Below are positions 1 through 22,733 of a stretch of 64,000 nt of DNA, one piece after another (position 1 is the stretch's first letter; each line of letters begins with the position of its first letter). The DNA lies in assembly GCA_963666835.2 (NCBI GenBank), contig CAXXGO010000006.1, positions 384,001 to 448,000 of the forward strand, written 5' to 3'. Origin of the DNA: Phycisphaerae bacterium (lineage in GTDB: Bacteria; Planctomycetota; Phycisphaerae; UBA1845). Made by a program: the position numbers and the translations under genes. The notes below the pieces were generated by a model. That model made no database searches. It was not told the DNA's origin and worked only from the letters and a program-made list of their open reading frames with translations.

Positions 1-3000
1 CGTGCTTGCCGAATACGCCGTAGCGGTCGAGATCTGCCCACGCGGAGTATAGTCGAACGCCAACACGCCGACCGTGGTGTCGAGGGTCTCGTCCATTGGG
101 GACGGGAGCGGGGGCGGATAGGTGATGTTGACCTCGGTGAGCTGGTCGAACGGTGGTGTGGTGGGGTCGTGCGGCGCAGTCGGCCAGGAGCCGTAGTGGA
201 AGTCGAGTTTGATGTTGCGTTGGTCGGTCCGCTGGGCGACGCGGCCGTCCACGGTGTACCGGAACTGGAGCATATCGCTTGCGCTGGGCTGGCCGGCTTC
301 GCCGCCGCTGGTGGCCGTGGCGGGGTATTGGATCGCCCCGACCAGGCTCGGCGCGTGGGAGACTACGTCGGAATGGTCCGAATCCGACCCGTTGACCAGC
401 GTCGCGTTGTAGATGAAGCGGGTGGCCTGGACGGTGGCGTCGGTCACGCTCACGCCGGTGCCCGCGAAGTCGTTGTCGGCGTCTTCGGTCCAGGTGATCG
501 AGGTTGGGTCGATATCAAGGTACTCGGTCGGATCCTCGGGCACGATGGCGACGATCATGTCCTGCAAGCCGCCGCGCGTGTAGTGATAGGCCTTGTAGCG
601 GACGGGGCCCTCGTACGGAAACCCGTCGTCCGGGTCCCAGTTCTCGGCGACCAGCAGGGTCCGCCCGAGCAGGTCGAACCAGGTCTTGGTGACGATGCCC
701 TTGGGATCGCGGACATAGTCGCGCCGGCCGGCGGCGTCGTAGTCGTAGAGGGTGATGATGGCGGTGTCCGGTGAGACGGGAGTCTGGCCGATCTTGTACT
801 CCGAGACAACCCACTCCGGCGGAGCGCCCGCGTTGTAGTCTAGCGGGGCCACAGTGTTCGTCGTGTATCCGTCAGCGGCGCCCGTTCCGTAGTTGGCCGT
901 GGCAATGAGGCGTTTTGTGTAGGGGTGGTACCAGTTGTACGTGTACGTGATGACGGCATTGCCGGTGGTAGCGATACCTCCCGTGGTATCGTGCTTGCGG
1001 TCGAAGTGCGTCTCGGAAAGAACATTGCCGAAGGCGTCGTAGGTACGTTTCGTGCGGGTCAGCTCGGTGCCGCCGCAGGTGCCCTTGGTGGAGCCCTCTT
1101 CGCTGCAGAAGCTGGTTTCGGTTACCCGGCCGAGGGAGTCGTAAGTGTTGACCGTGATGCCGTTGGGGGTCAGGCTGGCCGTGACGCGGTCGAGGTCGTC
1201 GCGGTAGGTTTTGGTGAAGGTGTAGTCGTCGTCGGTCTTTCTACTCGGATCGTATGTGCGCTGTTCATAGACGCGGCCGCGCTCGTCGTAGAGCGTGAGG
1301 GAGACCGTCTGCGGACTCTGCTGATTCGTACGCGCGCAGACTTCGTTGGCCGCGGTTTCCGGGGCGAGTTTCGCCCAGGCTTCGATCTCGTCAAGCGTCG
1401 GGAAGGTGCCGCCGGGCGGCCAGGTGGCCACAATCACGGGGCGATTAAGATTGTCGAAGACCGTGGCGGTCGTCGAGAGCAGTGCGGGGTTGCCGCAGTC
1501 GTGCCCGGCGCCGTCGACGACGACCTCCTTGGTGATAACCGGTCGGCCGCGCCAGTCGTAGGTGTATTGGGTGTCGCGGCTGGGGGTATCCTCGTCGAAC
1601 GACGTCATGCAGGACTCGGCGTTGTCGGTGAAGCGGCGGACGCGGACGAGTTTCCCGGCGTCGTTGGGGAAGTCGTCATTGCCCGAGACCAGTTCGTCGT
1701 TGGATTCGTAATCCGGATCGCCGTCGTTGTAGAGGCGTTGTTCTGACAGGACCATGTCGTCGTTGCTGCCCGAGAAGACGCGCGGGAACCAGTCGGAGCA
1801 GCCGTCGGCCGAGCCCTTGAAGATCTTCGTGGGCCGGCGTTTCGAGTCGAACAGCAGGCGGGTAATGGTCCCGTCCGGCTCCTTCTGCCGGGCGATGCGG
1901 TCTTCGAGATCGTAGGCGTACTCACGCACAACCGTGCGCCGCGCATCGACGTCGGGGTCGCTGGGGTTCTTCTTGAACTCGTTGAAGACGATATCGTGAG
2001 TCGGCTTGAGCGTGGAGGCCTGGCGATAGTCCCTGAAACTGCGGGCGAGGGTGACGAGTTGGTCGCCGGTGGCGGGGGGCCATTGGATGGCCGCCCCTTC
2101 CATGGGAATGGACGGCGTCCAGCCGCCGGCGCCGAGACCGTAGATATACTGGTTGCAGTTGTTGACGCCGCAATTGAGCCAGTTGTCACCCGGAATACCA
2201 TCACCCGAGGACAACTCCCCCCAAGCGTCGATCGCGCCATCGTACCCGTAATCCAAAAGCGAGATGCCCCATCCGAAGTCCTCGATCTTGTCGGTGGTAT
2301 CCGATCGGGCGTCGTTCCACGCGATTATGCGTTGTTCGATGAACTTGCCGGACTTGTCCATGACGTTGACGGTGGTTGTGCCGTGGACGTGGTCCTCAGA
2401 GCCTTCTCCCACAGACTTTTCTTCGACGCCCTCGTAGGTGATCTCGTAGACGTACGGATCCTGCCATTCAAGCGAAGTAACGCTCCCGCTAGTGTGTCGA
2501 AGGGTTCGGTTGGCCAGAATCTTGTGGTCGGTGCGGATGCTCTGTGCCCAATCGTCCGGTGTCCATAAGCTCGGATCGTCTGTGAAGGCGCCGGACATGG
2601 GGATTCCAGCGGTTTGGGAGCTGAGCAACCCGACGTCGTCAAACTGCCGGACCGAGGCCAAGTTAACGGCGTCCGGAGCCCCGGCGTCCCCATGACGCGC
2701 GAATCCGACGTCGGCGCAGGTCGCGTTTTCGCTGACCTCGCTGTCCAAGGTAGCCAGAGCGTCCAGATCGAAGTCGTTTATCTCGATGTTCGGCCGACCC
2801 AGATCGTCAAACCCATAATACGTAAGGAAGAACGGCGCTGTCGGTGTCGGGTGACTGGCGGTTGTCGTTGCCGGAAGAACAACCTTCCCGGCGATCGGGG
2901 ATCCTCCGCCGATGAGCGGGGGGTCTACGGGCGCCGACACCGTGGGGGCTACGCCGCTGCCGCGCCCATAAAGCCGGAGCCGTCCGCTAGTGTCGAAATA

Positions 3001-6000
3001 CCACATCTCCAGGGCAACGTTGTCGGTGCCGCCGTTCTCGCGATCGACGACTTCCTCCCAACGCCATTTCCATTTGACGACATCCTGCTTGTTGTCGTCT
3101 TCGCCATGGAAGGTGTAGTCGTAGTTGACCAGGATGGCGCCGTCCTCCGGCAGGGAAAGGAGGGTTACCGGTTCCTGGTTTTGGAGATCTACGTAGCGGA
3201 GGAAGTCCATGCAGGGGTAGCCCTCGGGGCAGAAACACCCTGGTTTATGCCCGAATTCGGAAGGATCCACGCACAAGGCCTCATCGCCGATCCAGCACTG
3301 CCCAGTCCCGACTGTCCCGGCAGGGTCGTTTACGAGATCAGCGTAGTCGTCGCTGTCGAGTTCCGGCCATTCGTAGTACGATGCTTCGACGAGCGGCAAG
3401 TCCAAGACTACCGTGGGGTCCGAGGTGTCGGGCTGACGTTCGTAATGCTGCGTCAGACCGACGATGGTCAACTGCTCCGGCATCACCCGTTGAACGGGGA
3501 CACTCTCCAGAACACTGGGCGTCTTGCATTGCTGGTTGTACAGGTTGCCGCCCTTCGATCCCTTGGCGATCCCGCGCAATACCGAGTGCCAACCACCCTC
3601 GCCGCCGAACAGGTGCGTCACTACGCGCCCCGTGTCCTTCACGGCCTCTATGCCGTTGTGGCGCAGAGCTGCTACCCAACTTTCGTCATAGATGTGCTTG
3701 GCCTGCCCGCGCTCGTTGACCAGTTCGTACCTCTGGTCGTCCACCAGAGAGGTCCGGTCGCCGTCGTAACCCGGGGTGAGGATCAGCCGGTCGCTCAGAG
3801 CGATTCCGTAGTAGTTCATCACTACCACTCGCCGGGTCTTCACCTTGGCGGGCATGCGGAAGTAATGGCTCGTCAGGGACAGGCCGGAGACGCCTCCGAA
3901 AGAGGCGGGACGATCCTCGGCCGGGGCCGCATCCAGGACCAGGCGGAAGTCATCCTCATAGATCGGGAAATCGCTTCGATCGTCGCTGTCTCCGTAGAAC
4001 TCCTCGCTGGTCTGGGGGAGAATCTCATCCACGATCGTAATGTTGTGCGGGTCGGCGAACGAGGTTATCCGGTTCGCATCGGCGTAGACCCCGGACGCGG
4101 CCCCGAGATAATCGAACCGATATAGGTGCATTTCACCGTCGCCGCCGCGCATTCTGGCGGTCTTGATCATGTGTTTGCGAAGCCGCGGAACGGCGTCGGG
4201 AATACCCATCCTCTCCAGTTCGGTGGGGTCGTACGTCCCGGCGTTTTCCGGGCAAGAGCAGGCCGCTTTGCATCCCTCGCCACCACACGCGTAGCGGGCG
4301 AAGCACCAGCCGCAATCCTGCCGCACAAACGGGCTGCAGTCAGGGTCGGTGTGTATCTCCGGTGAATACGCGTCTTGCCAGAGTCCTTCGCCGTCGCAAA
4401 CGTTGGCCGGCAAGTAGTTCAGTGGGCTGTCGGGCATTCCGAGGGTCGGATAGTCCCAGCAACGCCCGATGTAGGGGGCGTCATCGTAGCAGGGCTCGAT
4501 TCCGGCGTCGCGGAGTGTGTACGGATTGTAGTACGTGTACCACTGCGACGCGTACATGATCAGCGGGAGTTCATCGCCGTCGGGACCCACGGCGGCCGTG
4601 TCGGCCAGACGCAGAATGTCGTCCGGTTCGGAGATTGTCGGATCAGCATCGATAATCGCCTGTACGGCCTGCGGGTCGAAGACGGCCTTGAGGAAGCCGA
4701 AATCGTTATAGCGGTATAGCCAAACCTGCTCGATATAGTTGTCCGGAGCGTCCTGGTCGGGACGCACCCGCACGATGCGCTTTATGAGATTGACTCCAGA
4801 CGGCGCGGCCGGGGGAGAGTCCGACGTGAAACCATCCATCCACGGCTTCTCTCTATCCTGCGGCCCGCGGAAGTTCGGGTCCGGCACGCAGTCGGAGTGC
4901 ACGTTGGGTTTGTTCAGCGCTGCCGCGGGGTCGGTACTGCTGTCCATAACGGTGCAGTCGATGCCCGTCCCACCGCAGAGTGACGATTCCCATGCGTCCC
5001 CATCCGCTTCGTCATATGTACCGTCGCCATCCGCATCATAGAATAGGGAGTCTACCCCGTCCCCGTTGATGTCCGCGGAAAACGGAGTGAAGTAGTAATA
5101 CTTCGGCGCATTGAGTGCCTTGGGAGTGAAGTTGTAGTAGTAGTCCGGGGGAGTGCCGTCATCCGGTGGGGCGTGTTCGAGCAACAACCAGATCGGGTTG
5201 TTCCGCGCGTAGACGTACTGCACCTGATAGGTCCACGGGTCCGCCAACGTCGCCGCCTCCCCCGCAGGGCGACAATCCAGCGCGGTGTCACCGCCCGGCA
5301 TAATAGCCGCATGGTCGCCGGAGGTGGCGGGCACGAATGGATGCCTGCCGCTGGCGCAATCGCTGCTGTTCGGATCCGTGTCATCATAAGGAATCGCCCG
5401 AAGATGCACGAGCAGCGGGTTATCCTCACCATCCTCGTCGATCAGTCCATCTTCGTCGTCATCCCAATGGGCGAACGGATCCATTGGCGTGTCCGACGGA
5501 TCGCCATTTGAATCAGGCCTCCAATAGAGGGGGTTTTTGCATTCAGTGTAATTGCCCGGCGTCGCCCCGAAGATCCCAATCGAATAGGGCATTGCACTGT
5601 AACGCGAGTTTCCGGGCGCCCAACAATCACTCGCGGAGTCGTACCCGCTGCGGATGACGTCCTGACAGGCCGTGCAAGCCGCTGGACTGTTGATGCCCGC
5701 TAGGTATGGCAATTGGTTATTGGTGTCTTCGTCGGTGAGCCAATCGCCATCATCATCCACGCCCTGTATCCCTGGACATCCGTCCGGCGTCTCAGGCGGA
5801 GTGGTATCGCCGGGCCCGTCGCTGTCGACGTAATCCACCATCGGTTCGATCGCCAAGCTTTGCCTGAAGGTCATGTTTGGCCTCGCGGGTGATGTTCCCA
5901 AAAGGTCGATCGGTGGATATCTCGTCGCCTCGTCCCCCTCTCCAATCGTGCTGCCCCAGACCGAGTAATCATCCTGGAAAGGCGCCCCGTTGATTAGCGC

Positions 6001-7467
6001 AACTTCGTCATCTACGCCCTTCTTGTATGCCTGCACTGTCAACAAGGTTGTCTCATCCATAAGTTCGGGAAGACGCCCGAACTCCCAGTCGGATTGCGGA
6101 AGATGCGAGTAGATTGACCGCCACTGTCGCCATGCGTCATTGCCATTGGGCGGAACATCCTCGCGAGAGATGCAATCGCTCTCGGGATGCTCAAACACAA
6201 ATGCGATGGTCCACTCCGCCGCGGCGGGGTCTGTCTCATCCGCGTCTGCCGAGAACAGCCGCACTGTGCGCAGTCTCTTATGCGGAAGCCGCCAGGCATT
6301 GGGGGTTGGGTGATATGCCTCCGGCAGGTGTCCAAAGCTGGAATCACCCTGATTCTGCTCTGAGATGAAGGGAGCGTGGAGAACGCCGTTCGGCGGTACC
6401 TTGAAGTCGGTGTGCCAGCCGTATTTGGGTACTCGATCAAAAACCACGCGGTTGCCGTACTCGTCCCCGACGGCGGATGCTACCGATGCTCCGGACACCG
6501 CTCCGTCTTCGTCCCATTCGCCGTTGGGAATCGTGGCTTGCCGCGGCCACGTGGCGGAGCGCTCGAAATCCACGAGAAGGCGTCCCCCGTCTAGTTCGAG
6601 CTTCTGATACGTGTAAATGTTGTGGTAGTTCGGAAAGTAATCTTTGCCGATGCGAACGTTGCTGCCGTTCAGGTCGAGCGACACATTGAACACCGGGTCC
6701 AAGCCGCGAGCATGAAGCCAGGGCTCGCGAAACGCCGACGGGCACTCCCCGGTCAGCGTCCCGTCGAGGTTTGCGCGGATCTTGCTGGCCTGATACAACC
6801 CTCGCGACAGTTGGAGGTTGAACGACGACCGCAGGCCCCAACCCTGAAAGCCTACCTCGGCAGATGGATTGTAGATGGTTGGTTTGTGGACGTTCGTCTC
6901 GGCTTCATTGGGGCAGATCACTCCATAGTCCGGCGAAGGACCGAATTCGAGTGCCCAATACGGCTGGCCCCCGAGCCAATTCGGGCTGGCGCGGTAGCCG
7001 TGCCACGAGATGTCCTCGCCCGGATGCCAGCGAGCTTCCGTCCAGGGCAACGAGAAGTCGCTCGGTCCTTGCGCAAGCGTTCCTGCGGTTCCGACCTGCG
7101 GTGACGGCTCCGAGCTGCCCAACGTACTCATCTGGTTCCGGTACACCAAAGCACCGGCGTTGAGCGTGAAGTTAAGTCCCTGTTGGGGGGCTGCCCCCGA
7201 GAACAGAATCACCCCATCCTGCCGGGCAAGCTGCGAATGGGGCGCGCGATCCGGGTGGAGCATACGATTCTCCGGCCCGTTGCCCACGCAGAAGAAGTCC
7301 TTGCTCGGTGGGATCGAGTTCATAAACGGCGAGAGCGCTTCAGGTGCAGGGTGGGCTTCAAACTCATCTTCGCCCAAAACGGAACTCGTCGCGACGTACA
7401 GCACCGTAAGCAAAGTCACAAGACCTAACCGACAGACCGTCATCTCGTCTACGGATTGCGTATGCAT
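1..7467 (-). CDS. Giant RHS/YD-repeat protein with N-terminal Sec-type signal peptide; 3'-partial (>=2489 aa, C-terminus outside window)
   Basis: Manual translation from ATG at 7467 (MHTQSVDEMTVCRLGLVTLLTVLYVATSSVLG-EDEFE...). No minus-strand ORF in this frame appears in the track, and long antisense shadow ORFs lie in register, so the frame is open to the edge. YD motifs include YAYDLEDRIARQ, YTYDWRGRP, YDERGRVY, YDSLGRVT, YDAFGNV, YDYDAAGRRDYVRDPKG and FDYTPRGQ. Confidence 0.9.
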   Translation of the reverse strand, partial: MHTQSVDEMTVCRLGLVTLLTVLYVATSSVLGEDEFEAHPAPEALSPFMNSIPPSKDFFCVGNGPENRMLHPDRAPHSQLARQDGVILFSGAAPQQGLNFTLNAGALVYRNQMSTLGSSEPSPQVGTAGTLAQGPSDFSLPWTEARWHPGEDISWHGYRASPNWLGGQPYWALEFGPSPDYGVICPNEAETNVHKPTIYNPSAEVGFQGWGLRSSFNLQLSRGLYQASKIRANLDGTLTGECPSAFREPWLHARGLDPVFNVSLDLNGSNVRIGKDYFPNYHNIYTYQKLELDGGRLLVDFERSATWPRQATIPNGEWDEDGAVSGASVASAVGDEYGNRVVFDRVPKYGWHTDFKVPPNGVLHAPFISEQNQGDSSFGHLPEAYHPTPNAWRLPHKRLRTVRLFSADADETDPAAAEWTIAFVFEHPESDCISREDVPPNGNDAWRQWRSIYSHLPQSDWEFGRLPELMDETTLLTVQAYKKGVDDEVALINGAPFQDDYSVWGSTIGEGDEATRYPPIDLLGTSPARPNMTFRQSLAIEPMVDYVDSDGPGDTTPPETPDGCPGIQGVDDDGDWLTDEDTNNQLPYLAGINSPAACTACQDVIRSGYDSASDCWAPGNSRYSAMPYSIGIFGATPGNYTECKNPLYWRPDSNGDPSDTPMDPFAHWDDDEDGLIDEDGEDNPLLVHLRAIPYDDTDPNSSDCASGRHPFVPATSGDHAAIMPGGDTALDCRPAGEAATLADPWTYQVQYVYARNNPIWLLLEHAPPDDGTPPDYYYNFTPKALNAPKYYYFTPFSADINGDGVDSLFYDADGDGTYDEADGDAWESSLCGGTGIDCTVMDSSTDPAAALNKPNVHSDCVPDPNFRGPQDREKPWMDGFTSDSPPAAPSGVNLIKRIVRVRPDQDAPDNYIEQVWLYRYNDFGFLKAVFDPQAVQAIIDADPTISEPDDILRLADTAAVGPDGDELPLIMYASQWYTYYNPYTLRDAGIEPCYDDAPYIGRCWDYPTLGMPDSPLNYLPANVCDGEGLWQDAYSPEIHTDPDCSPFVRQDCGWCFARYACGGEGCKAACSCPENAGTYDPTELERMGIPDAVPRLRKHMIKTARMRGGDGEMHLYRFDYLGAASGVYADANRITSFADPHNITIVDEILPQTSEEFYGDSDDRSDFPIYEDDFRLVLDAAPAEDRPASFGGVSGLSLTSHYFRMPAKVKTRRVVVMNYYGIALSDRLILTPGYDGDRTSLVDDQRYELVNERGQAKHIYDESWVAALRHNGIEAVKDTGRVVTHLFGGEGGWHSVLRGIAKGSKGGNLYNQQCKTPSVLESVPVQRVMPEQLTIVGLTQHYERQPDTSDPTVVLDLPLVEASYYEWPELDSDDYADLVNDPAGTVGTGQCWIGDEALCVDPSEFGHKPGCFCPEGYPCMDFLRYVDLQNQEPVTLLSLPEDGAILVNYDYTFHGEDDNKQDVVKWKWRWEEVVDRENGGTDNVALEMWYFDTSGRLRLYGRGSGVAPTVSAPVDPPLIGGGSPIAGKVVLPATTTASHPTPTAPFFLTYYGFDDLGRPNIEINDFDLDALATLDSEVSENATCADVGFARHGDAGAPDAVNLASVRQFDDVGLLSSQTAGIPMSGAFTDDPSLWTPDDWAQSIRTDHKILANRTLRHTSGSVTSLEWQDPYVYEITYEGVEEKSVGEGSEDHVHGTTTVNVMDKSGKFIEQRIIAWNDARSDTTDKIEDFGWGISLLDYGYDGAIDAWGELSSGDGIPGDNWLNCGVNNCNQYIYGLGAGGWTPSIPMEGAAIQWPPATGDQLVTLARSFRDYRQASTLKPTHDIVFNEFKKNPSDPDVDARRTVVREYAYDLEDRIARQKEPDGTITRLLFDSKRRPTKIFKGSADGCSDWFPRVFSGSNDDMVLSEQRLYNDGDPDYESNDELVSGNDDFPNDAGKLVRVRRFTDNAESCMTSFDEDTPSRDTQYTYDWRGRPVITKEVVVDGAGHDCGNPALLSTTATVFDNLNRPVIVATWPPGGTFPTLDEIEAWAKLAPETAANEVCARTNQQSPQTVSLTLYDERGRVYEQRTYDPSRKTDDDYTFTKTYRDDLDRVTASLTPNGITVNTYDSLGRVTETSFCSEEGSTKGTCGGTELTRTKRTYDAFGNVLSETHFDRKHDTTGGIATTGNAVITYTYNWYHPYTKRLIATANYGTGAADGYTTNTVAPLDYNAGAPPEWVVSEYKIGQTPVSPDTAIITLYDYDAAGRRDYVRDPKGIVTKTWFDLLGRTLLVAENWDPDDGFPYEGPVRYKAYHYTRGGLQDMIVAIVPEDPTEYLDIDPTSITWTEDADNDFAGTGVSVTDATVQATRFIYNATLVNGSDSDHSDVVSHAPSLVGAIQYPATATSGGEAGQPSASDMLQFRYTVDGRVAQRTDQRNIKLDFHYGSWPTAPHDPTTPPFDQLTEVNITYPPPLPSPMDETLDTTVGVLAFDYTPRGQISTATAYSAST

Positions 7468-7641: not shown

Positions 7642-10600
7642 TCATTGAGGGGTTGCGATCTTGCAGTCCTCCGTGCAACCACTTACCGGATCCCCATTAA
7701 GAAGTGGCCCACGATCGCACTCCTCGGCAGGCCAGAACAGGTAGGCGTCATCGACCACACCGTTGCCACACAAGGGACTGGGCGTTGGTGGTGGCGGTGG
7801 CGGTGGCGGTGTCCCATCAATGATTTCGCAGGTCCATGGATTACACCACCACGCCCCGGATGCCGAAGTCCCCTCCGCAGCGCTCGCCCAATCGCATTCT
7901 TCGTCGCCCGCTTCGCACGGACCTTCGTAGCCAAGAGCGGTTAGCTCGTCGCAATGCCCCGTGCCTGCACCTTGGACAACCCCATCGCCGCAGACCCAAT
8001 GGCACGTAGCATCGCAGAACCGCCAATCCTCGAATCCGCAGTCATTACCACAACCCGGATCGCACTGCTCGCCGGGATCAATACTCCCGTTGCCGCAATC
8101 CGGCAGCTCGAAACATGCCCACTGGTTGGAGCCGTTCTTCCACGCGTATGCGCAGACTTCGTCGTCGCCATCGCACACGTCGTCGCCGTGCCACCACTTG
8201 CATCGATCAGCCGGGTAGACGTGTATGTTGTCAATAGAGAGTCTGGCCAACGTGGCAGTATCACCCTCCGCGGGTTCCGTCGTACGGGTCACGCCGACGG
8301 CCACCTTCACGCCGCGAGATTCCTCTGGAACCAGACGCCCCAATTCTGCGACTCTGGACGCCGCCGTGTGGTACTTGTTGGTGGTGCTTCCCCCATCCTT
8401 GTAATAGAAGATCTGCACAGTTTCAGAATCTCCGTACCATAGACAACCATACTCCGAATCGTAGTAGTAGAGGGCGTTCGTATTGACGAGGAAACGGAGC
8501 GTGATCAGGTCGTTCCGCGGGTAATAGGTGGCGTCTCCCACGGCGGTCGGCCCGCGCAGCGCGCTGAAGTTGTCCGAGGTACCGTAAACCGATTCGAGAT
8601 CAGCATCCTCATACTCGATCTTGATCAGATTCGTAGGTACGCCATCGCCGCTCAATCTAAGGTGGATTCGCTCGGCGTCATCGAGATCCTCGCCGCAGGA
8701 ATCCAGAACATAAAGATCGAAGGCGACTCCTGCCGTCATTGCGTCTATCTGCAGATCGATCTCAATTCCGAAGATGCTCCAATTACCGCGGTCGGGCTCG
8801 CCGAAGGCAGGAACGCTGATGCACTCCCCGAGCGGGAGTTGCTGCCCGGGAGTCTTCGCGAGCCAGGTGAATCCTTCCTCAACGTGTCCGAATACGGAGA
8901 GCTCGAGCTGGCTAATCTCGGGGTCGCCCTCTGCCGTAATCGCAGCCCCGGCGTGCCAGGTCTCTACGGGGGGATCGCCCCCGTCCGACTCCATCCAACC
9001 ATCAGCGGTTAACCACCACCCGGAATCGCGTGCAGCCTCGATGGGATCGGGGGCGACGGCAAGATCGTCAAAGGTCTCGATATACCCGTTCTCGTCGTCC
9101 GGAACGCATACCGCGGGAAAGGGCTCGCAGAGCGTCGGATCGCCCGTACAATCGACCGCCGCTCGGCAGAGATCGCTCTCGTCATCGTTGTCGCAATCGC
9201 AATCACATCGGCCACTGTAATCGCAGGCCAGTTCGTCGATCCAGTCCGAAACAAGGCAATCGTCGCCATCCGGGCAGACATCTGCACCGAAACAGATGCC
9301 GTCATTATCGTAGTCGGTCAGGTAGACGGACGGGGCACTAACACCATCGTCGCACGTGGCGGCATTACTCGCTTGACATGCCTCGCCAATGCCGTTGCGG
9401 TCGCAATCACGCTGCTCTGGGTTTGGGGTCCTGGGGCAGTTGTCGCACGGATTCGCGTGCTCGTCACCGTCAACGTCATTTTTGCCGCCGCCACCGGCAT
9501 CGGGGGGGTACCACGCGCACAGCCAATCGGCCAGCGTGGTGGAGATGTCGCGTGCCGTTCCCGGTTCGGCGGAGAAAGGCGGCAGGGGGGCTATGCGGGC
9601 AAAGTTGCCTTGTGGCTGCGGACTTGCGCAGTTAGCCACGTTAGCGATTTCATTGAGGAATCCATCTCGGCCCGGCTCGGCCGGTTGTTGGCAGTAGTCG
9701 TTACGCTCTTCACCTTCCTCTTCGACCTTGTAGGGCTCGTCTTTCTCCTCGCAGCCGTTGGGGACAAAGAGTGAACGATGCCAATCGGGACCGAGACGAA
9801 CGGTATTGACCGTGATACCAGCTTCACGCGCGGCGTTCGCCACGTCACGAATATGACAGGCTCGGTTGCAGAGTTCGTCATCGTAACAATACGCGGTCGC
9901 GTCGGCGCAGTCGACATTGGTCTCGTTACATGCGGTCTCCGATTGGCCGTAGCACGCCGGCGGGCACGGGGACGGAAGGCGGTATTCGCCCGTGCTCAGG
10001 AGGATGATGTACTTCTCGGCACCAGCGAGCGACGGTTCCTGATTCGGATCCTGCAGAAGCTGGGTTGCTTCGCGGATGCCAGCCTCCATGAGGCCGGCTG
10101 AATAGTGCCCGGAGGGCTCCAGGTTGAGTGCTCTTTGGATCAGCTCCTCACGGCGAGCTTCCGTGTACATCTGCGTCATCGGTATCCAGTTGGTTGGTGA
10201 TTCGTATTGCGCGGCGTCCAGCTGTGGAAACTGAAGGATGCCGAATGTGTAGGTATCGTCGGACCAGAGGCCTGGAAGATCGAAGAAGTCTGCGATCCCC
10301 TCTTTTGCCAACTCGAAGTAGTCGGGACCGATGCGGGGGAACATGCTTTGCGAACTGTCGATTACGAAGACGATTGCTCTTTCGGGCGGATCCGGTTCCG
10401 GTAGTGGGCCCGGATCTTGCCCTCCCCCGCCTCCACCGGTGTACACGTGGCAGTCGTCACCATCGCAGACGATGTTAGCGAGCTGCGCATCGATGATCCC
10501 TGCGAGGTCTGGGGGAATAGTGATCTCGTACCCCTGGTCCGGTTCTTCCAAGCCTCCGCCCTCGCTGCGGGCGGCCTGGCTGGGGGTGGGTTCGGCGGTC

Positions 10601-13044: not shown

Positions 13045-13075
13045 GGAAGACCGTCCATCCCTAATATCGACCTTG

Positions 13076-14938: not shown

Positions 14939-14952
14939 TCCGCCGGTCTCCG

Positions 14953-15375
14953 TTACGATGACGACCCCTCGTCGGCAACCAACCAGACGAACGCGCGAGT
15001 CCACGGTCGATGCCGGTTGTGCGGGTCCTCGAAGGTCAGAACAAGCCGCACTTCGGTGGCCGAGACTCCCTCGGCGATCTTCACCGAGCCGGATGATCGG
15101 CTCCACGTCCAGTTCTCATAGCCGGTTACCGCCCCCGATCCGTTTGCCTGGATGTTCGCCTTCTCCAGAGTCCACTCGGCCACGAGTTCGCGGGCTATGT
15201 GCTGCGCCTTAAGCTGCTGTTGGGACGTATGCAGCCGCGCAACCGCGGCCGACATCGCCACGAGCATAGTCGTCACGGCTCCGGCGGAGATGGTCAGCGC
15301 CGCCATGACCTCAATCAAGGTAAGCGCCCGCATCCTCTGCCGCGATCGGGCCCGTATTGTCATAGTCCTGTTCAC
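14953..15375 (-). CDS. gspI: T2SS minor pseudopilin GspI-like
   Basis: RMRA|LTLIEVMAALTI prepilin-like motif; about 140 aa; position. Confidence 0.7.
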   Translation of the reverse strand: MNRTMTIRARSRQRMRALTLIEVMAALTISAGAVTTMLVAMSAAVARLHTSQQQLKAQHIARELVAEWTLEKANIQANGSGAVTGYENWTWSRSSGSVKIAEGVSATEVRLVLTFEDPHNRHRPWTRAFVWLVADEGSSS

Positions 15376-15881
15376 CGCTGCTCCTGGTCAGCGTACTCGA
15401 GCCGCTCGATTCCGGTGTAGCCGTCTATTACCACGCACGCGCGCATCTGCGCTCGGTTTCTCAATCTCACCTCGTGGTTCGCACTCGTGTCGTTGGGAGT
15501 GATCATTATCTGTTGCGGCGCGGTCGGGTCGGTGTCGACCTGATCCGCCCCGGCGATTGTCACCCCCGTGATCCGCACTCCGTCCACCAGGTCCACCTGG
15601 GCAATACTGCGCCATCCCCACTCGCCGTCGCGTTCGACCGGCTCCGCCAACACACACCGGCGACCGGCCAGCTTCAAAGCATGCGATCGCCCCGAACGCG
15701 TTGCTCTCACCAATCCGGTGCGATAGACCGCTCCGATCTGGGTCGCCGCGGCTCCGAACGCCGCCCGGGCGGACAGGCCGTGCGTGCCGACGGTGACGAT
15801 CCCGATCGCGGTTACCATCACCGCCACCACGACCATCAGCTCGATTAACGTGAACGCTAAACGCCGCCGCAAACTGCCCAT
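15372..15881 (-). CDS. gspH: T2SS minor pseudopilin GspH-like
   Basis: RRRLA|FTLIELMVVV motif; directly after gspG. Confidence 0.7.
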   Translation of the reverse strand: MGSLRRRLAFTLIELMVVVAVMVTAIGIVTVGTHGLSARAAFGAAATQIGAVYRTGLVRATRSGRSHALKLAGRRCVLAEPVERDGEWGWRSIAQVDLVDGVRITGVTIAGADQVDTDPTAPQQIMITPNDTSANHEVRLRNRAQMRACVVIDGYTGIERLEYADQEQR

Positions 15882-16327
15882 TAGTCCGGCTCCTGCTCAT
15901 CCCAACTCGTCACGTCGGCTTGAGCCCCGACGCCACCCTCCTGCCCATCGGCGCCGTAGCTGAGCAGGTCATACGGGCCGCGGGTGCCGGGGAAGATATA
16001 GACGTAGTCGTTTCCCCACGGGTCTTGCAGATCGTTGCTTATCATGCCGTTGGGATGCTGTGGCGTCTTGGCGCGCAGAGCTTCCAGCCCGTCGTCGTAT
16101 GACGGGTACCGGTCGTTCTCCATGAAGTACAGCTCCAGGGCGTTCTTTATCGTGGCCACTTCGCTTCGAGCCACGTTCTGCTTGGCAGTGACCAGGTAGT
16201 CCGAAACCGACAGCGTAACGGCCGTGGCCATCACACCCACGATCACCACCACGACCATAAGTTCCACGAGCGTGAAGCCCCGTTCCGCCAAGATCTCTAT
16301 CAGACGTTTCTTCATCTGTTCGTCCAC
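15881..16327 (-). CDS. gspG: T2SS major pseudopilin GspG
   Basis: RG|FTLVELMVVVVIVG; ALELY...YP; DPWGNDYVY..PG; SYGADGQEGG. Confidence 0.95.
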   Translation of the reverse strand: MDEQMKKRLIEILAERGFTLVELMVVVVIVGVMATAVTLSVSDYLVTAKQNVARSEVATIKNALELYFMENDRYPSYDDGLEALRAKTPQHPNGMISNDLQDPWGNDYVYIFPGTRGPYDLLSYGADGQEGGVGAQADVTSWDEQEPD

Positions 16328-16329
16328 CT

Positions 16330-17538
16330 CTATTGAATCGTCCGGGTCGCCTCGAGGATCGGCATCATCGTGGCGAAGACCACGTAACCCACTGCCGCGG
16401 ACATGACGACAATGAGTACCGGCTCCAGAATGGAGGTCGCCTTCTCAATCGCCAGGCGGACTTCCATCTCATACCCTTCCTTGAGTTGCGTCAGCATCTC
16501 CGTCAGTTCCCCCGTGTTCTGGCCGACATTCACGATGCGGGCCACAAGCGGCGGAAACACCCGCGATCCCTCGAGGGTGGGGGCGATGTCACTCCCGCGC
16601 TGGATGGCTTGCTCCATATCGCCGAGTTCATCCGCCAACAGAAGATGCCCCGTCGTGGACCGTACAAGGCGCAGAGCCTCCAGGAACGACACGCCGCTAC
16701 GAAGCAACAACGACATGCTCTGGGCGAACTGGGCGATTACGCCCTTGCGGATCAGCGTGCCGATTACCGGCGTACGCAACTGCCCCGCGTGATACCAGCG
16801 TTTACCCGTGGGCCAACGCAAGAACGCCGTTGCCAGGGCGATCAGCAACACTCCAGCCAGCGCCAGCGCCGCCCAATGCTGAGTAACGCAATCGCTGATC
16901 GACTTGAGCACCATGGTACTGGTGGGCAACGAGCTTCCCGAGGCCTCCAGCACCGAGAGCAACTGCGGGATCACGTACGACATCAGGAACAGCACGACCC
17001 CGCTCCCCACTACGGCCAGGACCATCGGGTACGCCAAAGCACTGAACACGCGCGTCTTGACACTCTCCCGCTCCCGAATGAACGTCGCCAGCTCCGCCAG
17101 GGATCGTTCCATGCTCCCGGCCGTCTGCCCGACCTCGACGGCACTGCAGAAGACGTTGTCGAACCATGATTCGTGCATGCGCAGAGCGTCGCCGAACGCA
17201 CTTCCGGAACGCACTCGATCACGCAGATCACGAAGGACCGGGGTCAGCTTCCCGCGGGACTGTTGGGCCAGGACCCCGATAGCTTCGGCCAGCGGCACCC
17301 CGGCGCGGAGCAGCATTGACAACTGCCGGGCGAACTCGGCCACGTGTTCCTGACGTTTGGCCTTGCGCGTTCGGCGGAGAGAGATCTTCTTCTCCTTGAA
17401 CGCTACGGCCTCGAACTCCAGAAGCCTCAGACCGTCCTGTCTGAGGGTCTGCCGCCCGGACGCCGGCGTATCGGCCGTCAGCACCCCGGAAGTCAGGGCT
17501 CCCCCTCGATCGCGGGCTTTGTATGCGAATACCGGCAA
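16330..17538 (-). CDS. gspF: T2SS inner-membrane protein GspF
   Basis: FAYKARD..G; RQLSMLLRAGVPL; ALAYP; LEPVLIV; three TM segments. Confidence 0.95.
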   Translation of the reverse strand: MPVFAYKARDRGGALTSGVLTADTPASGRQTLRQDGLRLLEFEAVAFKEKKISLRRTRKAKRQEHVAEFARQLSMLLRAGVPLAEAIGVLAQQSRGKLTPVLRDLRDRVRSGSAFGDALRMHESWFDNVFCSAVEVGQTAGSMERSLAELATFIRERESVKTRVFSALAYPMVLAVVGSGVVLFLMSYVIPQLLSVLEASGSSLPTSTMVLKSISDCVTQHWAALALAGVLLIALATAFLRWPTGKRWYHAGQLRTPVIGTLIRKGVIAQFAQSMSLLLRSGVSFLEALRLVRSTTGHLLLADELGDMEQAIQRGSDIAPTLEGSRVFPPLVARIVNVGQNTGELTEMLTQLKEGYEMEVRLAIEKATSILEPVLIVVMSAAVGYVVFATMMPILEATRTIQ

Positions 17539-17582
17539 TCCACGCCTCCTCCGCGTCCGTCAGGTCCCGTCGGCTCCCGCTT

Positions 17583-19412
17583 TCAGTCGCGCCCGGTTGG
17601 CCCGTAATACGTCGGCGCGAGAATCTCGTCCTCAACCGTCGCCACCACATCGCCGGGTTCGTCCTGGCAACTGGTTCGCGACAGTTCCTGGACGGTCGTC
17701 TGCCCGTTTAACAGCTTCACTACCGCCTGCTGACGAAGCGTGGTCATCCCCGCAGCCATCGCGCGCTGCTTAATGGCAGACGACTTGGCCCGCCCGATGA
17801 TCAACTCGCGGATCGTCTCATCGACCTCGAGCAGTTCGAATATCCCCTCTCTACCGGAGTAGCCCGTCCCCCCGCATGATTCACAACCGTTGCGGTGGGC
17901 GACGCTAGTCCCGGCCTTCTCTCGGGCGATGTTCAACATCAGCCGATCTTCCTCGGTCAGTGCTGCGCTGGTGCGGCACTCCGGGCAGACAACCCGCAGG
18001 AGACGCTGAGCGAGGACCGCGGCCAGACTGCTGGCAACTAGGAACGGCTCGATTCCCAAATCCAAGAGCCGCGTGACCGCCCCGGCCGCATCGTTGGTGT
18101 GCAGAGTGCTGAATACGAGATGGCCGGTCATGGAACTCTGGATGGCCATCCGGGCCGTCTCCTCGTCCCGAATCTCGCCGACCATGATGATGTCCGGATC
18201 CTGCCGAAGCACGGCCCGGAGTCCCGTAGCGAAGGTCATACCCTTCTTGGCCGAGACCTGGGTCTGACTGATCCCGGGAAGCTGATACTCGATCGGATCC
18301 TCCAGGGTGAGGATGTTCTTCTCCTGGCAGTCCAGGTGCTGCAGGGCGGCGTAGAGGGTGGTGGACTTGCCGGACCCGGTCGGGCCCGTCACCAGGATGA
18401 TCCCGTGTGTTCGATCGAGAAGCCGCTCCAATCTCAATCGCTCATCGTCCTCCATACCCAGCTCGGTCATGCTGTATAGCCGGGTGGATTTGTCCAATAG
18501 TCGAATGACCACACGCTCCCCGTGGCTGGTCGGTATGACGCTGATGCGGAGGTCCACTGACTTGTCACCCACTCGAACCGAGGTTCGACCGTCTTGGGCG
18601 ATGCGTTTCTCGGCGATGTCCATTCCCCCGAGGACCTTGATCCGGCTGGCGACCTCGTCCAGCAGGTGATCGGGGACTTCGAGAATGTCGTAGAGGACTC
18701 CGTCGATCCGGTACCGCACTTGCACCTTGCCGGCCAGCGGTTGAATGTGGACATCGCTTGCCCGGCGCTTCACCGCCTCGAACAGCATCATGTTGACCAG
18801 CCGGATCACCGGCGCCCGAGAGGCCGTGTCCAGCAAATCCTGATCGCCCAACACCTCAATGTCGTCCGCGGTCTGCGATACTCCCTCCACCCCGTCCAGG
18901 ACTTCGTCGAACTCGGTATCACAATCCGCGTACGCTTCGTCCATCGCCTTCCGCACGACCGCGCTGGGGGCCAACTCGAGCCGCACCGGTTTGCCAAGTA
19001 GCGCTCCGACGTGATCGATGACGCTCAGGTCCCCGGCGCCGGACGCTACGATCGGCATATGCGTGTCCTGCTGCCGCAGTCCCAGAAGCCCGTGCCGCCG
19101 AGCGTAGCTGATCGGGATGTTGCCGAGGAACTCCGGGTCGACGTCCTCCGCGCTGATCACAGTATGGATGGGCACACCCAACAGATCAGCCAGCGCTTCG
19201 TGGTACCGGGCCTCATCGATCAGGGCTTGGTCGTTGAGATCGTACAACACCTGGATCGGCGCGCAGCCGCGCCGTTCAGCCTTGTGCACCGCATCCGCAA
19301 CCGCCTCGTCGTGAACGCCCAGACGCGACAAGACGGCTCCTGTGACGCTCACTGGCGGCGCAGGCTCGGCCGGCGGCGGAGTGTTGGCGGCAGTCCCGTC
19401 TAGCGCATCCAT
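17583..19412 (-). CDS. gspE: T2SS ATPase GspE
   Basis: ASDVHIQP; Walker A GPTGSGKSTT; LRQDPDIIMVGEIRD; TGHLVFSTLHTN; CPEC/CESC zinc motif. Confidence 0.97.
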   Translation of the reverse strand: MDALDGTAANTPPPAEPAPPVSVTGAVLSRLGVHDEAVADAVHKAERRGCAPIQVLYDLNDQALIDEARYHEALADLLGVPIHTVISAEDVDPEFLGNIPISYARRHGLLGLRQQDTHMPIVASGAGDLSVIDHVGALLGKPVRLELAPSAVVRKAMDEAYADCDTEFDEVLDGVEGVSQTADDIEVLGDQDLLDTASRAPVIRLVNMMLFEAVKRRASDVHIQPLAGKVQVRYRIDGVLYDILEVPDHLLDEVASRIKVLGGMDIAEKRIAQDGRTSVRVGDKSVDLRISVIPTSHGERVVIRLLDKSTRLYSMTELGMEDDERLRLERLLDRTHGIILVTGPTGSGKSTTLYAALQHLDCQEKNILTLEDPIEYQLPGISQTQVSAKKGMTFATGLRAVLRQDPDIIMVGEIRDEETARMAIQSSMTGHLVFSTLHTNDAAGAVTRLLDLGIEPFLVASSLAAVLAQRLLRVVCPECRTSAALTEEDRLMLNIAREKAGTSVAHRNGCESCGGTGYSGREGIFELLEVDETIRELIIGRAKSSAIKQRAMAAGMTTLRQQAVVKLLNGQTTVQELSRTSCQDEPGDVVATVEDEILAPTYYGPTGRD

Positions 19413-21694
19413 AGGTATTCGCTTTCCGGGTAGTCACGGGCCTGCAGGGCGGCGCGATCCATCTCTCGCCGGGATATGAGCTTCAGATCAGCGAAGGCGT
19501 CGTCGCGCAGGACCGTCGGGCGGATGAACGCGTAAACCTTTGTCTTCGTGCGGAGACGGTCGCTGCTCTGGAACAGTGCGCCGATGACCGGGATCCGGCC
19601 GAGCAGAGGCACCTCTGTTACCGAATCGCTCTCCGCCTCGGTCACCAACCCGCCCACAATAACGGTGTAGGCGTCAGGAACCTCGATTGTCCCGGAGAAT
19701 GAGTTCGTGGTTCGAGGCGGCGGTACCCCCACGGACCCGCTACCCGTGAAGTTGCTGAAGCTCAACGAGTAGTCGAGGGTTATGTGGTCCCCTTGGGCTA
19801 TGTGGGGCGTTACGGTCATCGTGGTGCCGGCGGACTCGAACCCCGCAAAGGACGTGGTCGCTACGGTGTCGGAGGCGTTGATGCTGGTGAAGGGCGCTTC
19901 TTCGACGCTGCCGATCGTAGCCGAGGTACCGTCGCTGAGGAGGATCTTCGGGGTCGCCATGATCCGGCTGTTGCCGTGCGCAGCGATAGCGCGAACCAAC
20001 AGGGGGGTCTCGTGCGGGCCCAGGAGCACGCCGTTGAATCCTCCGCCGGGCTGGAAAGAGCGGACCCCGGTCTCTGCATCGATCCCGGACAACCCGAAGC
20101 TCGAGAAGACTATCGATTCATAGCTTCCCATCAGCTCTTCGTTGGCCAGCTCCACGGCCATGCTCAGAGAGTCGTTGAACGTCACCGCAATCAACGTCAT
20201 CTCGATCATCACCTGCTGCTGCCGACGGTCCAGCTCATCCATCAGAGTCTGCAAGCGAACGTGGAACTCGTTAGGTCCGATGGCGATGATCGCGTTGGTA
20301 TGCTCATCATGTGACAGCACGAAGTCCTCGCCCTCGATCCTCCGCGGAACCGATCCGGGTTCCACCGGGTTCGCCGACGCGGCCTCCTCGGGGGCGGCGG
20401 ATACACTGCTTGGCCCCTGGCTGTTCGCCGGTACCCGCTGACTGTCCACGTGAGCAGGTTCCGTCACTTGCGGATCCGCGTCTTGGGGCCCCGATTCCGA
20501 GATGCTCGGCAGAAGCTGAGACAGAATACCCACCAGATCCCGAGCCAGCCGGTTACGTGGGTGATAGAAACGAAGCGGACGCGAAGTCTCGACCCCCGCG
20601 ATATCCTCCGCCTCCATCAAACGGCCGATGCGCGTGTGCATCTTCGGGGCGGCCGTCACATACAGTCGATTCGTATCCGCATCCAGGAACAGCTTCAGAG
20701 TACTCTCCCCGGTCGGCTCCTCCACGAGGACGTTCTCGATCAACAACTGCAACCGGTCCGCGGATATGTGCCTGGGGGCATAAACCAGAGTCGGCCGCCG
20801 TTCCTCCGTCGGAACGTCGAACCGCTCGATCAAGCCGGTCACCTCGGCCACCGCCTCCGCCGGTCCGATGAGCAGTATCTCCGCGTCGGTCAGATTCGCG
20901 CGAATCGCCACGGGCGGCTCCTTCAAGCCGCCCAGCTTGGCCTTGTCGGTCAGCACCTGTTGGACCCGCTCGGCGACGGCCGACGCATCTTGATGTCGAA
21001 CGGGCACGGTCGTCACCTCGACCGGGATCGGCACGACGTCCAACAGCTCGATAATGTCAATAGCCCGAGCCACCGCGGACTCGTAGTCGGTGATGATCAC
21101 CAAATGCCGGTCCGGCATCTCGATAATCGAGGCCTTCGAGGAAGAGAGGAAACTCCGCACGTGCTTGAGCACGTTCTGCATGTTCTCGGAGTGGATCTCG
21201 ACAATCTGGGAGACCACCTGGCCGGAATCGGCCGACGGAGTCAGCCGCCCGGCGCGGATGTCCTGGACGTGCCTCTGCATATCGTCGGTGGGTACGATGC
21301 GCAGCCAGCCCTCGATGTCTCCCGGCACCAGGGCCAGGTCGTTCATTCGCAGCATGCTCCGCAGAAGATCGAGAAGGTGTGTACGCGAGATTGCCACCTC
21401 CGTCGGGCGGAACACTACGGAACGGCCGTTCAGTTGATCATCATAGATGATCTTGATCTTCAGCGTCTGGCTCACATAGTCGACGAATGCCGCCAGATCG
21501 ACCTTGTCCGGGTAACTTATCTTGATAGTCTCGCCGACGTCGAGACCCTTCTCTCCCGCCCACGACTGCATCGCCCGCGACTGCCGCGGCCGCTTCTGGG
21601 CCGAGGCATCATCCGTAGCGGCGAAGAGTATGACGGCTAGGGCCACTCCGCACGGTCCGATCAGCTTGGCCGTTTGCGATGTTCGCTGCTGCAT
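19400..21694 (-). CDS. gspD: T2SS secretin GspD
   Basis: Signal peptide, repeated N-domains, QVMIEMTLI, VPLLGRIPVIGALF secretin signature. Confidence 0.93.
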   Translation of the reverse strand: MQQRTSQTAKLIGPCGVALAVILFAATDDASAQKRPRQSRAMQSWAGEKGLDVGETIKISYPDKVDLAAFVDYVSQTLKIKIIYDDQLNGRSVVFRPTEVAISRTHLLDLLRSMLRMNDLALVPGDIEGWLRIVPTDDMQRHVQDIRAGRLTPSADSGQVVSQIVEIHSENMQNVLKHVRSFLSSSKASIIEMPDRHLVIITDYESAVARAIDIIELLDVVPIPVEVTTVPVRHQDASAVAERVQQVLTDKAKLGGLKEPPVAIRANLTDAEILLIGPAEAVAEVTGLIERFDVPTEERRPTLVYAPRHISADRLQLLIENVLVEEPTGESTLKLFLDADTNRLYVTAAPKMHTRIGRLMEAEDIAGVETSRPLRFYHPRNRLARDLVGILSQLLPSISESGPQDADPQVTEPAHVDSQRVPANSQGPSSVSAAPEEAASANPVEPGSVPRRIEGEDFVLSHDEHTNAIIAIGPNEFHVRLQTLMDELDRRQQQVMIEMTLIAVTFNDSLSMAVELANEELMGSYESIVFSSFGLSGIDAETGVRSFQPGGGFNGVLLGPHETPLLVRAIAAHGNSRIMATPKILLSDGTSATIGSVEEAPFTSINASDTVATTSFAGFESAGTTMTVTPHIAQGDHITLDYSLSFSNFTGSGSVGVPPPRTTNSFSGTIEVPDAYTVIVGGLVTEAESDSVTEVPLLGRIPVIGALFQSSDRLRTKTKVYAFIRPTVLRDDAFADLKLISRREMDRAALQARDYPESEYLWMR

Positions 21695-22115
21695 GAGTGC
21701 CTCTTTCCGTCGTGGGAGGCGTTGTGCCCGACCGGCCGCACTCGACCCGCGGCGTCGCCCGAGCGACTGCGCATACCTGCTGCCGACCTCTTACCCTTCA
21801 CAAAGGGGTAATTGCACATTTGGTCCCAACGACAGACCAAGCCCGAACGAATGTCCACCGACGCTCATATCGGTGTAGGTGATAGCCCTCATGAGCTCAT
21901 CCGAATGTGGCGCAGACGTTGCGTCCGATAGCTGTGGGTATGATGCCGAAGTTGGCCTTCGGCGGCGGTGTATTGCGGGTATGACGCCCAAAACCGAAGT
22001 GATGGTCAACACGGCGTCCGTGCCGGACGATACAACTACTGTTCGATGGGTCGGGGACAATCAATCCCTACGAGAATCTCGGCGCAGAAGTTCTGTTATG
22101 GAAGGATGTCCGCGT

Positions 22116-22733
22116 ATGCAGCCGTTCCCGCAACGACTCGGTCGGTTAGCGGTCTTACTGGTGTTGCTCGGGGGCTGCGCGACCGGGCAGCGCGCCCGCT
22201 GGCTGCGGGACGCGGATAAGCCGCACCTGCGCACGCCGGTAGTGGCTCGCGAGCACAATGACCGCGGTCTGGAGGAACTGGAAAACGGGAACCTCGACGC
22301 GGCCCGAGAACAATTCCAGGAAGCGATTCTGTGCGATATGTACTACGCCCCGGCCCACAACAACTTGGGCTTGGTCCTACTCCAGCAGAACCAGCCCTAT
22401 GACGCGGCCTGGGAGTTCCAAAGTGCCATTCGGCTGAGCCCCCACGCCGCAGAGCCGCGGGCCAATCTCGGCCTGCTATACGAAGAGATCGGCCGAGTGG
22501 ACCACGCCATCACCAAGTACAAGACGGCTTTGGAATACGATCCGGAGAACGCCGCAGTCATGCGCCACCTGGCGCGGGCTTACGTCAAGGCCGGCAAAAA
22601 GGACGATAGCTTGAAGTCCGTCCTGGAGACGCTCCTCGGCGTCCCCGACGACGGCCCGTGGGACTACTGGGTGCGTGGGCAACTGATCCGCGTCGGCCGG
22701 GAGGAAGGTCCGACGCAACTGTTCGAGGAATGA
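22116..22733 (+). CDS. TPR lipoprotein, PilF/PilW-like candidate pilotin
   Basis: Lipobox LVLLGGC; TPR motifs AHNNLGLV and EPRANLGLLY; divergent from gspD. Confidence 0.75.
   Translation: MQPFPQRLGRLAVLLVLLGGCATGQRARWLRDADKPHLRTPVVAREHNDRGLEELENGNLDAAREQFQEAILCDMYYAPAHNNLGLVLLQQNQPYDAAWEFQSAIRLSPHAAEPRANLGLLYEEIGRVDHAITKYKTALEYDPENAAVMRHLARAYVKAGKKDDSLKSVLETLLGVPDDGPWDYWVRGQLIRVGREEGPTQLFEE

Follow-up and report, generated by a model that had tools for sequence, protein, structure and literature searches.

We analysed a stretch of 64,000 nucleotides from a Phycisphaerae bacterium (assembly GCA_963666835.2, contig CAXXGO010000006.1; G000:C6:384001-448000 in our notation), hereafter the window, in which a cluster of type II secretion system (T2SS) genes, gspD to gspM, is followed on the minus strand by a gene for a vWA protein and by the start of a giant RHS gene that leaves the window at its left end. 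An initial annotation, made from the letters of the window, had set out the gsp genes, the vWA gene and the open RHS reading frame on this strand, and all of them are present where it placed them. In window positions, unless contig C6, C5 or C1 is named, the locus is laid out as follows.

21879..22733, plus strand: TPR lipoprotein, predicted pilotin; start likely at ~22098-22116, lipobox Cys at residue 100 of the open reading frame (ORF)
19400..21694, minus strand: GspD secretin of the RHS-linked clade, with five N-domains (N0-N1-N2-Nx-N3); Pfam N0, Secretin_N and Secretin
17583..19412, minus strand: GspE ATPase with an MshEN-family N-domain; Walker A/B, Cys box and His box all intact
16330..17538, minus strand: GspF platform protein (Pfam and NCBIfam)
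15881..16327, minus strand: GspG major pseudopilin (Pfam T2SSG, E 4e-29; TIGR01710 above cut-off)
15372-15881, minus strand: minor pseudopilin GspH (weak NCBIfam T2SS match)
14953-15375, minus strand: minor pseudopilin GspI (weak NCBIfam T2SS match)
14306-15106, minus strand: minor pseudopilin GspJ (weak NCBIfam T2SS match; ORF over-long)
13597-14319, minus strand: minor pseudopilin GspK, from its position, prepilin-like N-terminus and a PDB profile match (E 0.15)
13076-13597, minus strand: GspC-like protein without PDZ (weak T2SS model match; order kept in relatives)
11656-13044, minus strand: GspL (weak Pfam and NCBIfam matches; order kept in relatives)
11118-11663, minus strand: GspM (weak T2SS model match; order kept in relatives)
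7642..10680, minus strand: vWA protein, 1,012 aa (Pfam, NCBIfam)
1..7467, minus strand: 5' part of the RHS gene (2,489 of 3,514 codons), continuing left of the window to its end at C6:380923
C6:380200-380910, left of the window and next after the RHS gene: Imm52 immunity gene (PF15579, E 1e-26)
C6:363006-379965, left of the window: array of orphan RHS/Hint-tip cassettes, ~17 kb, ending at an insertion sequence (IS) transposase
22890..23882, plus strand: lipoprotein of unassigned function, a possible accessory, with homologues beside the cluster in relatives G015, G024 and G061

By its core features (GspD with N0, GspE with GspF, and GspG) the gsp cluster reads in sequence as a T2SS, with weakly matched minor components. 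Pfam support is firm for D, E, F and G and weak for L, and the top NCBIfam matches of the same four proteins are T2SS models (G alone above cut-off), with H, I, J, C, L and M matching such models weakly and below cut-off. GspK has no NCBIfam match, and a profile built from 12 K homologues gave GspK as its top match in the PDB (E 0.15). Neighbouring genes from D to M overlap or lie at most 44 bp apart, except for I and J, whose 154-bp overlap comes from the over-long J ORF; gaps of 437 bp and then 174 bp separate the gsp genes from the vWA gene and the vWA gene from the RHS gene. A promoter and terminator scan of the locus found signals no commoner than in shuffled sequence. No retraction ATPase is present, there being no PilT among the cluster genes, nor does the cluster hold a prepilin peptidase, the one PF01478 match of the genome lying at a Tad-like locus. 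The secretin itself (PF21305, PF03958, PF00263) has T2SS GspD proteins as its best PDB matches, and its extra domain (residues 299-366), which aligns with N3 at a probability of 98.6 and is seen in 84 of 99 clade rows, may mirror a wide periplasm rather than cargo size, since the housekeeping secretin locus too has many such repeats. The initial annotation was right to place a TPR gene at 21879-22733, to which we add the correction that it lies on the opposite strand and encodes a lipoprotein. With PilW as its top NCBIfam match (E 3e-17, below cut-off) and a strict lipobox pattern finding the Cys in 34 of 53 TPR homologues that adjoin clade gspD, this divergent lipoprotein looks like the pilotin of the secretin. 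The second lipoprotein, at 22890..23882, had no match in a Pfam scan. A search of plasmids with GspD found no match, and a recent foreign island was rejected as an origin of the locus, its GC of 0.60-0.65 being the same as that of the window.

Read past the window on the contig, the RHS ORF grows from the at least 2,489 aa first annotated to 3,514 codons. The Sec-type leader proposed for it holds up as a hydrophobic segment at about residues 10-32 (KD13 2.33; judged by hydropathy). A YD shell (from at least about residue 1430) is followed by the motifs RFxxxDP at 2990 and PxxxxDPxG, the core end, at 3040, with TIGR03696 above the NCBIfam cut-off for the core, by a Hint domain (3173-3381) and by a Tox-REase-5 tip (3407-3486) in which the FDG and DAK motif residues are present; the mature protein has a computed mass of 383 kDa and a pI of 4.5. 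Thus the core end, variable tip and immunity gene for which the initial annotation had pointed to the left of the window are all found there, the last as Imm52. The orphan array beyond it contains six cassettes, each with a complete tip and followed by a small gene, plus two truncated pieces, all in DNA 84-96% identical to the 3' core of the main RHS gene. The small genes encode Imm26 together with DUF4259, DUF7674, LRV and three unnamed products; two of the orphan tips have weak nuclease matches (Ntox50, E 0.004; T5orf172, E 0.07), and the other four gave no credible family match. Tips likewise differ among RHS homologues. From the leader, YD shell, core end, Hint domain, Tox-REase-5, Imm52 and orphan cassettes together, it follows that the payload is a polymorphic toxin: in every feature that sequence can test this is a standard polymorphic toxin array, with its toxicity predicted. 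Of the "toxin or adhesin" first proposed, then, the toxin stands and the adhesin is disfavoured by Tox-REase-5, Imm52 and the orphan cassettes. A sequencing-read joint that skips the tip and Imm52 was considered as tip switching and rejected, as an orphan cassette of the same array explains it; low read cover of the tips in a second study was given no weight.

The N-terminal part of this protein has few relatives. In a profile comparison residues ~1430-3055 are collinear with the sister family, RHS family B (2,400-2,700 aa), whereas residues 40-520 were found in just 11 near-length proteins and the first 900 residues match nothing explanatory. An AlphaFold2 model of residues 33-505, built from 8 alignment rows, reached a pLDDT of 32, and leads from an ESM Atlas search were all below 0.9. 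Weak profile matches to teneurins and bacterial teneurin-like proteins were seen, and a Pfam scan of the RHS protein found no NHL and no FN-plug domain. The nearest solved structures are Rhs proteins, several named as linked to type VI secretion systems (T6SS), aligned over the core end; neither the RHS gene nor the scanned genes around it gave a PAAR or VgrG Pfam match.

The vWA protein combines an N-terminal hydrophobic segment, a vWA domain, TSP3-like Ca repeats and Cys-rich repeats; its vWA domain keeps DxSxS, with later positions of the metal-ion-dependent adhesion site (MIDAS) changed. Its gene lies upstream of family-A RHS, the family of the window, in 8/8 loci (6/6 relatives and both copies in this genome), and from this gene order we consider it likely that the protein partners family-A RHS at the cell surface or anchors it there. 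In one further genome (G199, L108:3874-11949) a gene for a 2,691-aa PA14/Calx-beta/Ig adhesin-like protein stands between the gsp genes and RHS, in the place of vWA.

We evaluated the synteny of these genes among 150 relatives, in which the clade GspD is patchy (26/150, of which 21 scored above 440 bits, our threshold for a strong match) and the housekeeping secretin near-universal (142/150). The family-A RHS N-terminus occurs in six of them, with one further weak match that was not read. Three (G015, G022, G078) carry a full D-M cluster and a divergent TPR gene directly upstream of vWA and RHS, and a fourth (G024) has the same cluster and TPR gene upstream of this pair across a contig break. 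In 14 of the 21 relatives with a strong GspD an RHS gene borders the cluster, mostly of family B behind a TPR gene (one of the 14, G090, has RHS fragments alone), and the rest comprise five clusters that end at contig edges (one inside a vWA gene), one that is unlinked, and G031. The five low-scoring GspD loci showed no large RHS, G103 having a short RHS-end ORF. Counting from the cargo side, 19 of 21 relatives with strong RHS-A/B matches have clade gsp genes, three of them as fragments only; this count takes strong RHS-B as E below 1e-79 and excludes nine weaker RHS-B matches, of which two were read (G121, G017), neither of them with a gsp gene in the sequence retrieved. Two relatives (G150, G062) have two clusters each, every cluster with its own RHS, and G015 has two such T2SSs, one paired with RHS family A and one with family B. 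Families B and C lack the vWA gene and keep the gsp cluster, and several family-B tips are Cys-rich or of no named family.

Smaller forms of the locus were also observed. In G031 (C35, L048, 2201-5437) short ORFs with a leader and an RHS core end lie inside the cluster, and in G103 (C265, L066, 5657-6430) a short leader and RHS-end protein lies inside or behind it; in these proteins a signal peptide is joined straight to the core-end motif of RHS and to a variable tip, which makes them shell-less mini-RHS toxins. G060 (L219-L220) holds a decayed module, with TPR and a truncated RHS, and an accessory gene and a gspD fragment 30 kb off.

The association extends across the phylum. Of 400 genomes drawn from it 25 match the clade, and 10 of the 21 loci read (from 29) have RHS beside the gsp genes. 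When GTDB was scanned with a single GspD sequence nothing matched, whereas a GspD alignment gave 176 loci, of which the best 80 were kept; these overlap with the relatives and are not independent of them, and nearly all are titled Planctomycetota, from Phycisphaerae and Planctomycetia both. Taking as linkage a non-self RHS match with E up to 1e-10 within 10 kb, we found RHS in 38/80 loci, with four further loci running into a vWA gene; among the long loci (at least 20.5 kb, n=27) 18 have RHS and two vWA. For the housekeeping secretin, in a set of genomes picked mostly because they have RHS, the corresponding value was 1/21 neighbourhoods; as these control loci represent a single inherited locus and most RHS queries were taken from linked families, we treat 38/80 versus 1/21 as a contrast and give no p-value. 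The recurring gsp, TPR and RHS synteny that the initial annotation foresaw in Planctomycetota is thereby borne out. Linked RHS ORFs have a hydrophobic leader in 29/32 cases (by hydropathy only). Two complete genomes carry the pairing: Planctomycetales bacterium ZRK34 (L142) with a full D-M cluster, TPR and a 2,518-aa RHS, and Aeoliella sp. SH292 (L172) with gspDE and a 2,208-aa RHS.

The separation of this GspD from housekeeping T2SSs, also anticipated, is clear in a FastTree phylogeny of 105 secretins: the clade splits from the housekeeping secretins with an SH-like value of 99, and each of its three main subclades contains members linked to RHS. In six close kin (housekeeping identity 60-70%) two GspD subclades, with 59-62% identity within and 41-45% between them, coincide exactly with RHS family A or B.

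Several neighbours of these clusters deserve a record of their own. In 20/80 GTDB loci, of families B and C, gspD is preceded by the gene for an all-helical protein of 260 aa that has a membrane anchor and LTxxQ-like repeats (L118:9084-9875 and homologues) and is absent from the window locus. It has a predicted structure with pLDDT 90, found no match in a PDB fold search or a sequence-profile search, and matches LTXXQ weakly in 6/14 members; a Spy/CpxP-like periplasmic chaperone is offered as a lead only. RHS-less sister clusters (L093, L101, L104, L105; in G519, G267, G286, G545) lie near similar ~1,000-aa genes, which we take to resemble TonB-dependent receptors, and the clade may have been re-purposed in them. 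One family-A cluster with vWA (L117) sits in a record titled non-planctomycete, which suggests misbinning or transfer.

Elsewhere in the genome a second vWA and RHS pair lies on C5 (RHS of 3,263 aa, 54% identical), a contig on which there is no gsp gene. Five secretins were found in all, one of them in a T2SS-like housekeeping cluster at C1:37-62 kb. Within this cluster (C1:47226-61810, L193) we observed a gene of 3,245 aa and a secretin of 1,545 aa, and its counterparts in relatives have many N-domain repeats and frames up to ~5,000 aa. The initial annotation reported no T6SS gene, which is correct for the window and does not extend to the genome, where TssC, VgrG and PAAR lie at C6:2.117-2.132 Mb, 1.7 Mb away. 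SpvB/TcB (PF03534) had no match in the genome (92% complete), TcA not having been searched. RHS core matches fall into five arrays, the three further ones being a 2,255-aa RHS with cassettes (C1:1471900-1489133), a broken or short RHS with cassettes (C6:1057721-1077551) and orphan family-A cassettes (C5:127031-135789). Since, RHS-rich as the genome is, RHS arrays and the 10 kb around them take up ~3% of it (arithmetic), the gsp-RHS adjacency is more than chance would give. In the window itself, two features apart from the locus were seen: a gene at 26909-29704 (minus strand) for a 931-aa secreted-looking Cys-rich protein, without a Pfam match and with ~20 paralogous matches in the genome, and at 53127-55065 a possible tandem repeat, suggested by ORF starts that recur every 362 bp on the two strands.

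Taken together, we think that the locus probably encodes a polymorphic toxin, a giant RHS shell protein that has a T2SS lineage of its own as partner and likely exporter. The complete gsp set, the leader-shell-Hint-toxin gene, the immunity gene, the spare tips and the phylum-wide association of clade and RHS are read directly from the DNA; the export route, binding by the vWA protein and target entry are what we infer. Under this reading, Sec would move the RHS and vWA proteins to the periplasm, where they would fold with disulfides and Ca2+. Once the shell had closed round the tip, cleavage at the DPxG aspartyl site and by the Hint domain would release it inside the cage, self-cleavage of both kinds being known from other RHS and Hint toxins. 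The TPR lipoprotein would assemble the five-N-domain secretin, through which a GspG pseudopilus would push the loaded shell (~383 kDa mature), and in family A the vWA protein would tether the shell on the surface or aid target-cell binding. The nuclease would then enter a neighbouring bacterium, with Imm52 protecting kin, and recombination with the orphan cassettes would exchange tip and immunity gene together; the unlinked C5 pair would use the same machine in trans. We give about even chances to the wider proposal of a phylum-wide, toxin-dedicated T2SS subtype, with a longer secretin, a TPR pilotin and often the helical accessory, that would extrude pre-loaded RHS cages of 230-380 kDa, forming a dedicated polymorphic-toxin delivery route alongside the type V, VI and VII systems (T5SS, T6SS, T7SS) and carrying probably the largest single-chain T2SS cargo.

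A number of observations weigh against this interpretation. The main one is G053, a 100% complete genome with an intact vWA, RHS and Imm52 set in which no clade GspD, GspM or GspG was found, and no T6SS sheath either. In G061 the family-A RHS and the clade cluster are both present and unlinked, and G104 has RHS-B pieces and no clade gsp genes. Strict dedication is opposed by the unlinked C5 copy and by clade clusters that lack RHS: no RHS lay in the fetched span of 11/21 loci of the phylum draw (4 of them contig-limited), and 7/27 long GTDB loci have neither RHS nor vWA. The housekeeping control is weakened by the shared inheritance and query bias given above, and the leaders of linked RHS proteins were judged by hydropathy alone. 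Across 14 paired loci GspD distances follow those of the housekeeping secretin (rho 0.74) more closely than those of RHS (rho 0.56; partial value 0.41, descriptive only). To our knowledge T2SS substrates reach up to ~170 kDa, and the cargo here would be far above that. "Self-contained", as the module was first called, is too strong, given a cluster without a prepilin peptidase, a C5 pair without gsp genes and G053 without the clade T2SS.

The alternative that survives best, though we consider it unlikely, is that RHS is a Sec substrate for any T2SS, the housekeeping one included, and that the linked cluster is a co-transferred booster, neither required nor specific. It stays alive because G053 keeps vWA, RHS and Imm52 with housekeeping gsp genes only; the unlinked C5 copy, the housekeeping cluster in 142/150 relatives and the reliance of the Xanthomonas toxin Bcn-A on the chromosomal xpsD gene (PMC7259588, in the part of that paper available) fit it as well. 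A mere booster would, however, leave unexplained why whole clusters are duplicated with each RHS copy in G150 and G062, why subclade matches RHS family within G015, and why clade gsp genes accompany strong RHS-A/B matches in 19/21 relatives.

Less probable again, at long odds, is that the gsp cluster belongs to the system and the folded shell does not pass through it, the cluster being a surface pseudopilus or contact device, or exporting vWA or a processed piece, and the shell leaving via vesicles or lysis. The mature mass of 383 kDa and the pilotin of type IV pilus kind would suit such an arrangement, as would the giant proteins of Omnitrophota, which likewise lie behind T2SS-like loci with roles unresolved in the available part of that preprint (10.1101/2023.11.21.568195). 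Yet families B and C keep the cluster without a vWA gene, GspG is a true T2SS pseudopilin in a cluster without PilT, and the secretin is extended by one more periplasmic ring domain.

A role of RHS as T6SS cargo or as part of a Tc-type toxin, with the gsp cluster a chance neighbour, we regard as very improbable: the genome does have a T6SS, and the best structural matches, over the core end, are to solved Rhs proteins of which several are named T6SS-associated, but the hydrophobic leader, the lack of PAAR and VgrG in the gene and the scanned genes, the lack of an SpvB match in the genome, a T6SS sheath not found in 3/5 family-A relatives tested and the 38/80 versus 1/21 contrast led us to reject T6SS cargo, Tc component and chance adjacency alike. 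Hardly credible, finally, is an exported RHS that serves mainly in adhesion or kin recognition with a tip not meant for killing, for which the Ca-binding and Cys-rich insertions and the unfamiliar family-B tips might speak and which Tox-REase-5 with its motif residues, the cognate Imm52, the toxin-immunity order and the orphan nuclease-like tips contradict.

The pairing of an RHS toxin with its own T2SS lineage has partial precedents, which we compare here from the portions of each source available. Zhang et al. 2012 (PMC3482391) assign signal-peptide RHS toxins by default to the T2SS/Sec route, with no signature neighbour genes in their Table 1, and describe Imm52 as an immunity family paired with Tox-REase-5. 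The locus shares with their RHS toxins the signal peptide, RHS, HINT and variable tip, the Tox-REase-5/Imm52 pair, the toxin-immunity order and the orphan cassettes, and differs in that its toxin is accompanied by an entire, separate gsp apparatus. In the same paper the Neisseria MafA/MafB system resembles the vWA arrangement, with an upstream surface-protein gene always before the full-length toxin and proposed as an anchor, but has other domains, and no dedicated T2SS is described for it there. Bcn-A of Xanthomonas perforans (PMC7259588) is a Rhs toxin of 1,398 aa found in the supernatant whose activity is lost in an xpsD mutant, and Rhs families of Xanthomonas and Ralstonia have been linked to gspG, with T2SS export predicted and not functionally confirmed (10.1101/2025.05.08.652813). 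These are alike as Rhs toxins with T2SS-dependent activity (Bcn-A) or predicted T2SS export (the gspG-linked families); unlike the chromosomal xpsD of the one and the gspG alone of the other, the genes here run from D to M with a pilotin and form a distinct clade, and the cargo, at 2,100-3,500 aa with a Sec-type leader, is larger than Bcn-A. Bacterial teneurin-like proteins (PMC13018210), for which the authors see no obvious delivery machinery, share the large Sec-exported YD shell, polymorphic tip and immunity gene; the FN-plug and NHL propeller that precede the YD shell in them gave no Pfam match here. The Omnitrophota giant genes (10.1101/2023.11.21.568195), from a PVC-related phylum, are similar in that a conserved T2SS-like cluster lies immediately upstream of them, but their products exceed 30,000 aa and are membrane-anchored, with Tad-like components and no RHS toxin-immunity arrays. 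A Serratia T2SS helps in competition, in an account whose available part leaves the substrates unidentified and does not mention Rhs. In the literature available to us, partly as excerpts, we found no account that connects an entire T2SS clade with RHS toxins or describes such planctomycete loci; larger gsp neighbourhoods could still appear in the supplements of the Xanthomonas and Ralstonia preprint (10.1101/2025.05.08.652813).

The new element is thus the dedicated, phylum-wide pairing of a T2SS lineage with RHS toxins, T2SS-dependent Rhs export itself having its precedent in Bcn-A. For the crossing of the outer membrane by Sec-exported RHS and teneurin-like toxins in diderms, a candidate machine can now be named, and it is testable in Planctomycetales bacterium ZRK34 and Aeoliella sp. 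SH292. If the proposed export is true, the known size of secretin cargo would be stretched, and planctomycetes would gain an antibacterial weapon independent of the T6SS.

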